The notes under the pieces were generated by a model. It saw nothing but the letters and a program-made list of their open reading frames with translations. It was not told the origin of the DNA and made no database searches. This document shows positions 10,602-11,025 of a DNA stretch of 35,580 bases, in pieces. Positions within the stretch are counted from its first letter, which is position 1, and the number at the start of each line of letters is the position of its first letter. Position numbers and translations under genes: made by a program. This stretch comes from a virus: the UHGV virus genome UHGV-0000037, one strand, 5' to 3'.

Positions 10602-10859
10602 TTACTGATTGTCGCCGAACTCGCTTTTGATTTGCTCTTCAGCCTGCTCCAGCCACATCTCCAGATCGTCAGTATCGAGGGCATCAATCTCCCCCGGTTG
10701 AAACCTGAACCATCTCGCCAGCAGGCCCTGCGCCTGCATCAGTGTTTTTGTCGCTCTTGCCCAGCCCAGTGATTTTCTGAAATCGTTTCTGCAGCTCCAT
10801 ATAGTCGGCAAGATCCATGTTATCGAGGTCTTCCGGGAGGATACCGGTGCTACGGGCAA
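10602..10859 (-). CDS. Frameshift extension ORF of the tail assembly chaperone (E'/T-like)
   Basis: Overlaps 10684-10859 in the +1 (= -2) frame relative to the chaperone; acidic C-terminus ...FQPGEIDALDTDDLEMWLEQAEEQIKSEFGDNQ; no independent RBS evident. Confidence 0.45.
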   Translation of the reverse strand: MPVAPVSSRKTSITWILPTIWSCRNDFRKSLGWARATKTLMQAQGLLARWFRFQPGEIDALDTDDLEMWLEQAEEQIKSEFGDNQ

Positions 10860-11025
10860 TCAGTGGTTCGTCCCAGTCTGCCGGGTCTTTGTTGATTTTG
10901 CGCACCTGCTTCAGGTCTTTTACTGTCAGGCGTTTCAGTTCAATCTGTTCAATTCTGGTACCTGCAGCAGTGGTGAAAGGATAAGACAGCGTAAAAGTAT
11001 CGGACTGGGTCTGTGACATGATCAT
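10684..11025 (-). CDS. Tail assembly chaperone (P2 gpE / lambda G-like), upstream frame
   Basis: 113 aa, immediately upstream of the tape measure, overlapped at its 3' end by a second ORF in another frame. Confidence 0.6.
   Translation of the reverse strand: MIMSQTQSDTFTLSYPFTTAAGTRIEQIELKRLTVKDLKQVRKINKDPADWDEPLIARSTGILPEDLDNMDLADYMELQKRFQKITGLGKSDKNTDAGAGPAGEMVQVSTGGD

Follow-up and report, generated by a model that had tools for sequence, protein, structure and literature searches.

How does a tail assembly chaperone gene express an extension that lies in the +1 reading frame, and not in the -1 frame? This question is raised by a 35,580-nucleotide (nt) stretch of the virus genome UHGV-0000037 (the whole stretch is called the window below), in which a chaperone open reading frame (ORF) on the minus strand is overlapped by a second, downstream ORF. 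An earlier note on this DNA had taken the two for a tail chaperone pair whose fusion requires a +1 or -2 frame change rather than the canonical -1, and our results agree with it: the observed frames, the chaperone family PF10109, and an E'-like domain in the second ORF all fit such a pair. We propose that the chaperone gene probably makes a longer fusion protein by a +1 shift at the sequence CGA_UUU_C (Table 1). The comparative sequence evidence for this site is strong, and the site would represent a real +1 variant of the known tail chaperone frameshift.

The two ORFs, 11025-10684 (113 amino acids) and 10859-10602, are present as the earlier note had them, but the start of the chaperone is better placed at ATG 11019 than at the alternative upstream ATG at 11025. 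ATG 11019 is 7 nt after AAGGAG and is also the choice of the Prokaryotic Genome Annotation Pipeline (PGAP), which names this ORF “phage tail assembly protein” in Escherichia coli records 99-100% identical over the 1.1-kb region. The only chaperone-family match of the window protein is PF10109, the family that holds P2 E, and its score is 79.8 bits unfused and 85.1 bits fused (cutoff 25). The translation of the +1-frame ORF is LLARWFRFQPGEIDALDTDDLEMWLEQAEEQIK; its tail is acidic and resembles P2 E', and the acidic E'-type tail that had been read from the sequence is real. A BLASTP comparison of the window extension with P2 E' gave 30% identity over 27 amino acids (E = 0.002) at an equal distance from the junction, and the PF06528 profile matched the extension at 17.5 bits (E = 0.003), under the cutoff of 23. 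In relatives, the same profile scores 22.7 bits (Brenneria) and 51 bits (a Pasteurella phage). The extension also matches phrog_8286 (E = 3e-32), which is labeled “unknown function” in PHROGs, and PGAP calls an identical 45-residue ORF a “GpE family phage tail protein.” NCBIfam gave no match for any of the products, and no relative was found in the PDB by sequence. As for the -1 frame, which had been described as closed, it is indeed interrupted at 10852, 10822, and 10741, but past these stops, 74 codons (10738-10516) can be read through without a break, across the chaperone stop. This open stretch has no family match, and its length varies from 5 to 82 codons in relatives; therefore, we rejected the -1 frame as coding.

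The evidence for the shift site comes from two sets of relatives. The first set is an ungapped alignment of 70 unique enterobacterial sequences, taken from E. coli genomes, GTDB (one genome per species), and IMG/VR. Here, CGA is found in 69/70 sequences (one has CGG), while TTT and the C that follows it are each found in 70/70. Every one of the remaining 22 conserved degenerate frame-0 codons varies at its third position, with a diversity of.06-.64, and another conserved arginine of the chaperone gene is encoded by CGA in just 1/70 sequences. CGA makes up 4.2% of the arginine codons in the window structural genes, and a count over 4975 codons gave no further in-frame CGA_TTT_C. The pattern of variation also changes along the gene: the mean nt diversity at frame-0 codon positions 1, 2, and 3 is.13,.06, and.37 in the 90 nt upstream of alignment column 180 and.24,.08, and.02 in the E' region. 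Since the diversity pattern reverses in this way, the wobble phase passes from frame 0 to the +1 frame, and it does so at CGA_TTT_C. Shortly past the site, the tryptophan codon of the +1 frame is invariant, whereas the frame-0 residues overlapping it vary (L/M/V and G/A/D). Substitutions that create stops or amino-acid changes in frame 0 leave the +1-frame protein unchanged; TTC AGG to TTT AGA is one such case. The alignment indicates that the +1 frame is selected well upstream of the frame-0 stop. In every relative, the last stop of the +1 frame precedes the site and the first stop of frame 0 follows it; for the enterobacterial clade, the distances are at least 6 codons upstream and at least 11 codons downstream, respectively. 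The overlap holds a conserved slippery sequence, which is not a canonical X_XXY_YYZ heptamer.

The second and more distant set consists of BcepMu-like loci (59 fetched from IMG/VR, giving 45 unique sequences, with 47 unique chaperone ORFs for the count of the Phe codon). All 54 loci with a detected E' domain have it in the +1 frame. In 44 of the 45 unique sequences, the allowed overlap holds one in-frame TTT_C and no more, always at chaperone residue 71-75; the sole exception (L172) has ACG_UUU_UAC, that is, UUU_U, and UUU_Y is found at the homologous codon in all 47 unique chaperone ORFs. The commonest contexts are UCC_UUU_CGC, which is the most frequent, GUG_UUU_CGG, and GCC_UUU_CGC. The Phe at the site is encoded by TTT in 47/47 ORFs, as against 31% TTT elsewhere in the same ORFs, which come from loci of 61% GC. 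The tightest cases are two loci (L134 and L135) with a +1-frame stop 4 codons upstream of the site and a frame-0 stop 7 codons downstream, and UUU_C is the sole plausible slip site in this stop-bounded interval of about 11 codons. Another locus (L150, IMGVR_UViG_3300033998_000108, at about 810-830) has GAT_TTT_TTT_CGG, a U7 run at the shift position, which could support -1 and +1 slippage alike.

Based on these comparisons, we suggest a plausible mechanism for production of the fusion. The majority of ribosomes would read frame 0 to the stop at 10686-10684 and yield an abundant short chaperone of 111 amino acids, and a minority would shift by +1 at CGA_UUU_C and yield a fusion of 138 amino acids. 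In a P-site route, the peptidyl-tRNA-Phe would re-pair from UUU (10782-10780) to UUC (10781-10779) with CGA in the E site, and decoding would restart at AGA (10778-10776). Alternatively, Phe-tRNA could bind UUC out of frame, with CGA, decoded through an I:A wobble, in the P site. Both routes would lead to the identical protein, ...LQKRF/RKSLGW..., in which the slash marks the junction. CGA can stand in at the yeast Ty3 site (Atkins review, PMC5009743). Because re-pairing in the -2 direction is impossible at CGA_UUU_C (UUU vs GAU), a shift here would be +1, and the +1 re-pairing from UUU to UUC would provide a better codon for tRNA-Phe (anticodon GAA), an argument previously made for influenza PA-X (PMC3498833). 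The relation of the frames, the homologies, the pattern of conservation, and the stops on either side of the site are seen in the sequences themselves; from them, we infer that ribosomes shift at this site, in the +1 and not the -2 direction, and likewise the efficiency of the shift and the role of the flanking CGA.

The predicted fusion is join(11019..10780, 10778..10602), with 80 residues from frame 0 and 58 residues from the +1 frame, and the +1-frame product includes the stretch EIDALDTDDLEMWLEQAEEQIK. In the fusion, PF10109 covers residues 8-84 (85 bits) and is followed by a linker of about 20 residues and then by the PF06528-like domain at residues 100-132. By analogy with lambda G/GT and P2 E/E+E' (PMC5009743), the N-terminal part shared by both products would serve to coat the tape measure protein, with the extension bringing in the tube protein.

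Several points weigh against our proposal. The sequences share ancestry, so that the counts given above overstate the number of independent observations. The window's own extension matches PF06528 below the Pfam threshold. Part of the invariance of CGA_TTT_C could arise from dual coding (R-F in frame 0 and D-F in the +1 frame) if the shift took place a few codons upstream; no slippery sequence is present at a distance of a few codons upstream of CGA_TTT_C. The first +1-frame codon in the window is the rare AGA, while most relatives have AGC. Finally, since the usual stimulators of +1 shifts are absent, the efficiency could be very low. No stimulatory RNA structure was found: RNAalifold on 15 diverse sequences gave -7.2 kcal/mol without covariation, and the single-sequence z-score was 0.01. 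A search of the shift region against Rfam gave no match, and no Shine-Dalgarno-like element is conserved upstream of the site, the GGAG located 14 nt upstream in the window being unconserved.

RNAalifold pairs CGAUUUC (10779-10785) with GAGAUUG about 90 nt downstream (~10685-10691), at the frame-0 stop. This pairing is kept in most sequences, again without covariation, and coding constrains both arms.

Could the +1 ORF be expressed without any frameshift? It might be translated independently as a small GpE-family protein, for example, as 45 amino acids from ATG 10739, and the existing annotations would agree with this: PGAP has a 45-46-residue “GpE family phage tail protein” as an ORF of its own in some genomes of E. 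coli, PHROGs keeps phrog_8286 as a stand-alone family for the +1 ORF, and the GenBank record of BcepMu has the +1 ORF as a separate gene, gp42. We nevertheless consider independent translation unlikely. The downstream ORF had been said to lack a ribosome binding site of its own. No start codon is conserved anywhere in it among the 70 unique relatives, the best-occupied positions being filled in 46/70 and 38/70. ATG 10739 is found in only 38/70 and is not preceded by a Shine-Dalgarno sequence, and conservation of the +1 frame reaches at least 8 codons upstream of it. In loci of the BcepMu clade such as L134, the displayed +1-frame stretch past the site contains no ATG, GTG, or TTG. In P2, moreover, the homologous domain is produced only as the E+E' fusion.

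If a frameshift does occur, its position could differ from CGA_UUU_C. The earlier note had looked for the slip site at about 10750-10790, a region that does contain CGA_UUU_C, and had pointed to the tracts CAG-AAA-ATC (10779-10771), immediately 3' of our site, and GAC-AAA-AAC (10752-10744). A +1 slip of tRNA-Lys on one of these A tracts (CAG_AAA_A, 10779-10773, or GAC_AAA_AAC) would be attractive in that both are present within the open +1 frame and permit perfect re-pairing from AAA to AAA, but we judge it very unlikely, and the tracts themselves were not the right choice. Neither is conserved, even in relatives at about 90% nt identity, which have CAG CAA GTC or CAG CTC ATC in place of the first and GAC GAA AAC or AAC CAG GGC in place of the second. 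The invariant +1-frame tryptophan lies upstream of the A5 run, and therefore selection on the +1 frame begins before that run. A database protein, P0013, corresponds to a 1-nt deletion in the A5 run, which could be taken in favor of slippage there but is most simply explained as an indel or a homopolymer error.

A second candidate position is the G5 run near the frame-0 stop, where a Mu-like shift (-2 or +1) would give the product ...VSTG(G)-EIDALD.... In Mu gp41, the 12-codon overlap also contains a G5 run (CGG_GGG_CGA), and the shift used is -2 (PMC3498833, PMC5009743). On the window run, re-pairing of tRNA-Gly would be feasible in either direction, from GGG to GGG for +1 and from GGA to GGG for -2. 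We rejected the run as a conserved shift site, and a shift there in the window seems highly improbable to us, since many relatives stop frame 0 upstream of it with the +1 frame intact. In 34/71 unique relatives, frame 0 already stops 7 codons upstream of the run, at GTT TAG, as it does in KP12, and in four Arsenophonus/Symbiopectobacterium-type sequences, it stops 17 codons upstream; in these early-stop relatives (KP12-type, Arsenophonus, and Symbiopectobacterium prophages), the +1 frame reads ...LLARWFRFQPxEID... without interruption. The run is missing in Brenneria, Salmonella, and Ralstonia relatives, whose +1 frame has P-S-E instead of P-G-E (CCG AGT GAG or CCC AGT GAA replaces the run in Brenneria and Salmonella). 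In addition, a shift on the run would cost the fusion the LLARWFRFQP segment with which the E' domain begins, a conserved segment that can be aligned with P2 E'.

That the +1 ORF is a decaying, unexpressed remnant of an ancestral E' is barely tenable: several database relatives have indels in the region, but the wobble-biased variation speaks for strong purifying selection on the +1 frame, whose W, LLARWF, and P.E motifs are invariant across Enterobacterales, Ralstonia, Burkholderia, and Pseudomonas phages. We also rejected GCA_GGG_G and GGC_GCA as +1/-2 sites, since the window has GGG_C and the invariant +1-frame tryptophan is upstream of both, and transcriptional slippage, for which the T3 run would be too short.

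Some public assemblies encode the chaperone and E' in one frame. P0010, P0011, P0013, and P0064 are 138-residue in-frame chaperone-E' fusions that correspond to the loss of 1 nt at a homopolymer (in the G5 run, in the A5 run, or in a CAGGGC). Logan assemblies are the source of most of them; P0064 lies on a contig of 5.07 Mb and has an E. coli locus tag from NCBI. Errors of sequencing or real indel mutants are the likely explanation, as the predicted frameshift junction is present in none of the four. In Apirhabdus apintestini (CP138906.1, at about 1690-1700 of the locus L022), 1 nt is deleted (CTGGAGCTG to CTGG-GCTG) at a distance of 13 nt upstream of CGA_TTT_C. The chaperone and E' then share a frame, resulting in one fused ORF and no short product.

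The +1 shift that we favor at CGA_UUU_C recalls several known systems. P2 E/E+E' has the same families in the same order (PF10109 and then PF06528, the latter matched below its cutoff in the window) and the same position between the tube (FII) and tape measure (T) genes. Its E+E' has 142 amino acids (PF10109 at 7-85 and PF06528 at 104-139) and is collinear, with similar spacing, with the predicted window fusion of 138. The annotated -1 site of P2, G_GTT_TTT_TG, and the heptamer of Vibrio phage Valp1, G_GGT_TTT, contain a Phe codon homologous to that of the window, at the end of the PF10109 domain; therefore, the +1 site is positionally homologous to a proven frameshift site, that of P2. The difference is that P2 shifts by -1 on a canonical heptamer (U_UUU_UUG), whereas the window has CGA_UUU_C and a diverged E' domain, and with its extension in the +1 frame, a P2-type -1 shift on U_UUU_UUG does not account for it. 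Mu, like the window, is a transposable phage with the chaperone between the tube and tape measure genes and an extension in the +1/-2 frame (PMC3498833, PMC5009743). However, Mu gp41 belongs to PF23746 (Gp41_Mu, 116 bits) and matches PF10109 weakly, while the window protein belongs to PF10109 and has no PF23746 match; and the Mu overlap holds a G5 run, whereas the G5 run of the window is not the conserved site, which sets the window apart from shifts on G runs. Lambda G/GT follows the same logic: directly ahead of the tape measure gene, a short chaperone is encoded together with a rare extended form, and the extension of the latter binds to the tube protein (PMC5009743), but it is a siphovirus system without sequence similarity to the window and shifts by -1 on a slippery heptamer.

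A likeness of another kind is that to influenza PA-X, in which UUU_C is a proven +1 site (UCC_UUU_CGU) and from which a whole class of UUU_C sites, restricted in their E- and A-site codons, was predicted (PMC3498833). PA-X shares UUU_C, conserved flanking codons, and the lack of RNA structure with our site (PMC3498833), and UCC_UUU_CGC of the BcepMu clade is comparable; the differences are the eukaryotic ribosome, the unrelated gene, and the conserved 3' CGU in place of the window's 5' CGA. An in-frame UUU followed by C, restricted flanks, and a +1 extension are found both in the window (CGA_UUU_C) and in the BcepMu clade (UCC/GCC/GUG_UUU_CGN), which would place both in the UUU_C class. Listeria phage PSA/A118 tsh (CCC_UGA) and E. 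coli prfB (CUU_UGA) also give a C-terminally extended protein by +1 P-site slippage (PMC5009743), as proposed here, but in the window, a sense codon (CAG) would stand in the A site, and 31 codons separate the proposed shift from the stop.

The earlier note called a frame change of this kind atypical. This is fair, but precedents exist in the -2 shift of Mu and the +1 shifts of actinobacteriophages. In the PRFect collection of annotated phage frameshifts, which come largely from tail chaperone genes, 350 are forward and 2368 backward (PMC10885494). Shifts by +1 have been recorded for viruses of haloarchaea and for actinobacteriophages (PMC5009743, PMC10885494), and in the latter, +1 tail chaperone frameshifts are routinely annotated (PMC10885494). 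No general +1 slippery motif is recognized for bacteria (PMC10885494). Hence, a tail chaperone shift into another frame than -1 is uncommon, though it has been seen before. The literature searched, which covers older work incompletely, gave no account of +1 shifting on UUU_C in the tail chaperone genes of phages (P2 E/E' family, Mu/BcepMu-like).

Extending our proposal beyond the window, we would give about an even chance to the following: a large clade of proteobacterial Mu/BcepMu-like myoviruses, whose 1.1-kb chaperone region is matched in 642/5426 complete E. coli genomes, uses a structure-independent +1 shift on an Arg-flanked UUU_Y to make an E+E'-type fusion. The Arg flank would be a 5' CGA in enterobacteria and a 3' CGN in Burkholderia/Pseudomonas phages. 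This would be a bacterial counterpart of PA-X UCC_UUU_CGU, probably derived from a P2-type -1 site on the same Phe codon, and annotation pipelines would miss it or split the gene. Tail chaperone frameshifting is textbook recoding, but its +1 forms are poorly characterized. If the idea is true, it offers a tractable natural E. coli model for the UUU_C class predicted from influenza PA-X, at a deeply conserved site with a rare CGA flank and without a stop codon, Shine-Dalgarno sequence, or RNA structure, and would allow the effects of E-site and P-site codons to be tested, including that of I:A wobble at CGA. A comparison of P2 (-1), this clade (+1), and Mu (-2) would then display one functional need met after frame changes at one locus.

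There is also a practical gain, as the fusion is unannotated in the records inspected, where the +1 ORF is omitted or listed as a stand-alone small protein. In three E. coli records, PGAP gives the chaperone alone or the chaperone plus a separate small “GpE family” ORF, with no fusion. In BcepMu (NC_005882, locus L034, 4603-5364), gp41 is the PF10109 chaperone, and gp42 holds an E'-like domain downstream of TCC_TTT_CGC; the published gene model, in which gp42 is lambda G, is probably wrong. The GenBank record describes the +1 ORF gp42 as “probable lambda G” and gp43 as the slippage product.

Table 1. Coordinates of the proposed shift site, its predicted products, and the neighboring genes in the window.
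Feature	Position	Strand	Remarks
Proposed +1 shift site CGA_UUU_C	10785-10779	minus	frame-0 codons Arg79, Phe80
Tail assembly chaperone ORF, frame 0, 111 amino acids	11019-10684	minus	PF10109 Phage_TAC_7, E = 1.5e-22
+1-frame ORF, 85 codons	open 10859-10602, TAA 10604-10602	minus	+1 (= -2) frame of chaperone
Predicted +1-frame extension, 58 codons (RKSLGWARATKTLMQAQGLLARWFRFQPGEIDALDTDDLEMWLEQAEEQIKSEFGDNQ) + TAA stop	10778-10602	minus	translation; wobble variation follows +1 frame
Invariant +1-frame Trp codon TGG	10763-10761	minus	six codons past shift site; W in 70/70
P2 E'-like domain, fusion residues 100-132	10623-10721	minus	PF06528 Phage_P2_GpE, profile positions 4-36 of 37
G5 run CC_GGG_GGA_G	10695-10691	minus	2 codons before frame-0 stop; resembles Mu -2 site
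Sheath gene	13349-11922	minus	
Tail tube gene	11922-11401	minus	PF04985, E = 2e-53; upstream context of chaperone
93-residue ORF between tube and chaperone genes	11398-11117	minus	phrog_1239 (unknown function), E = 1e-47
Tape measure gene, 821 amino acids	10508-8043	minus	PF10145, E = 1e-15; downstream context

The chaperone gene is placed between the tube and tape measure genes, the location typical of lambda G/GT. From its gene content, the window is a transposable Mu/BcepMu-like phage (prophage) whose tail is of the P2 type. An rve transposase and an AAA ATPase are encoded at 28419-31365, and a Mu portal, a terminase, and homologues of P2 GpU, GpD, and baseplate J are also present. Among phage records, those of Klebsiella phage KP12, Escherichia phage PhiKM (classified Bcepmuvirus), and Phi06_2974 B come closest.

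Some minor observations concern the surroundings of the chaperone gene. The 93-residue ORF gives a weak match to DUF7739 (25.8 bits vs a cutoff of 27), and no gene is annotated at its position in BcepMu or phiE255. Directly 3' of its stop is a GC hairpin that resembles a terminator, AGGGGCTCCGGCCCCT and then TCTTCTT (11095-11110, minus strand); the hairpin precedes the start of the chaperone by about 70 nt and falls within what is presumed to be a single late tail operon. In E. coli NZ_CP132022.1, the 1.1-kb region aligns as two pieces, with an extra “Gp49 family protein” gene annotated within. Between the E' stop and the tape measure start is a perfect 9-bp hairpin, AACAGCCGC-CAGTC-GCGGCTGTT (10566-10588, minus strand), whose stems are kept in KP12, PhiKM, and E. 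coli relatives, with differences in the loop only. Just past this hairpin, at about 10562, the window ceases to resemble the large E. coli clade of 90% nt identity, and the hairpin region may be a mosaic boundary.

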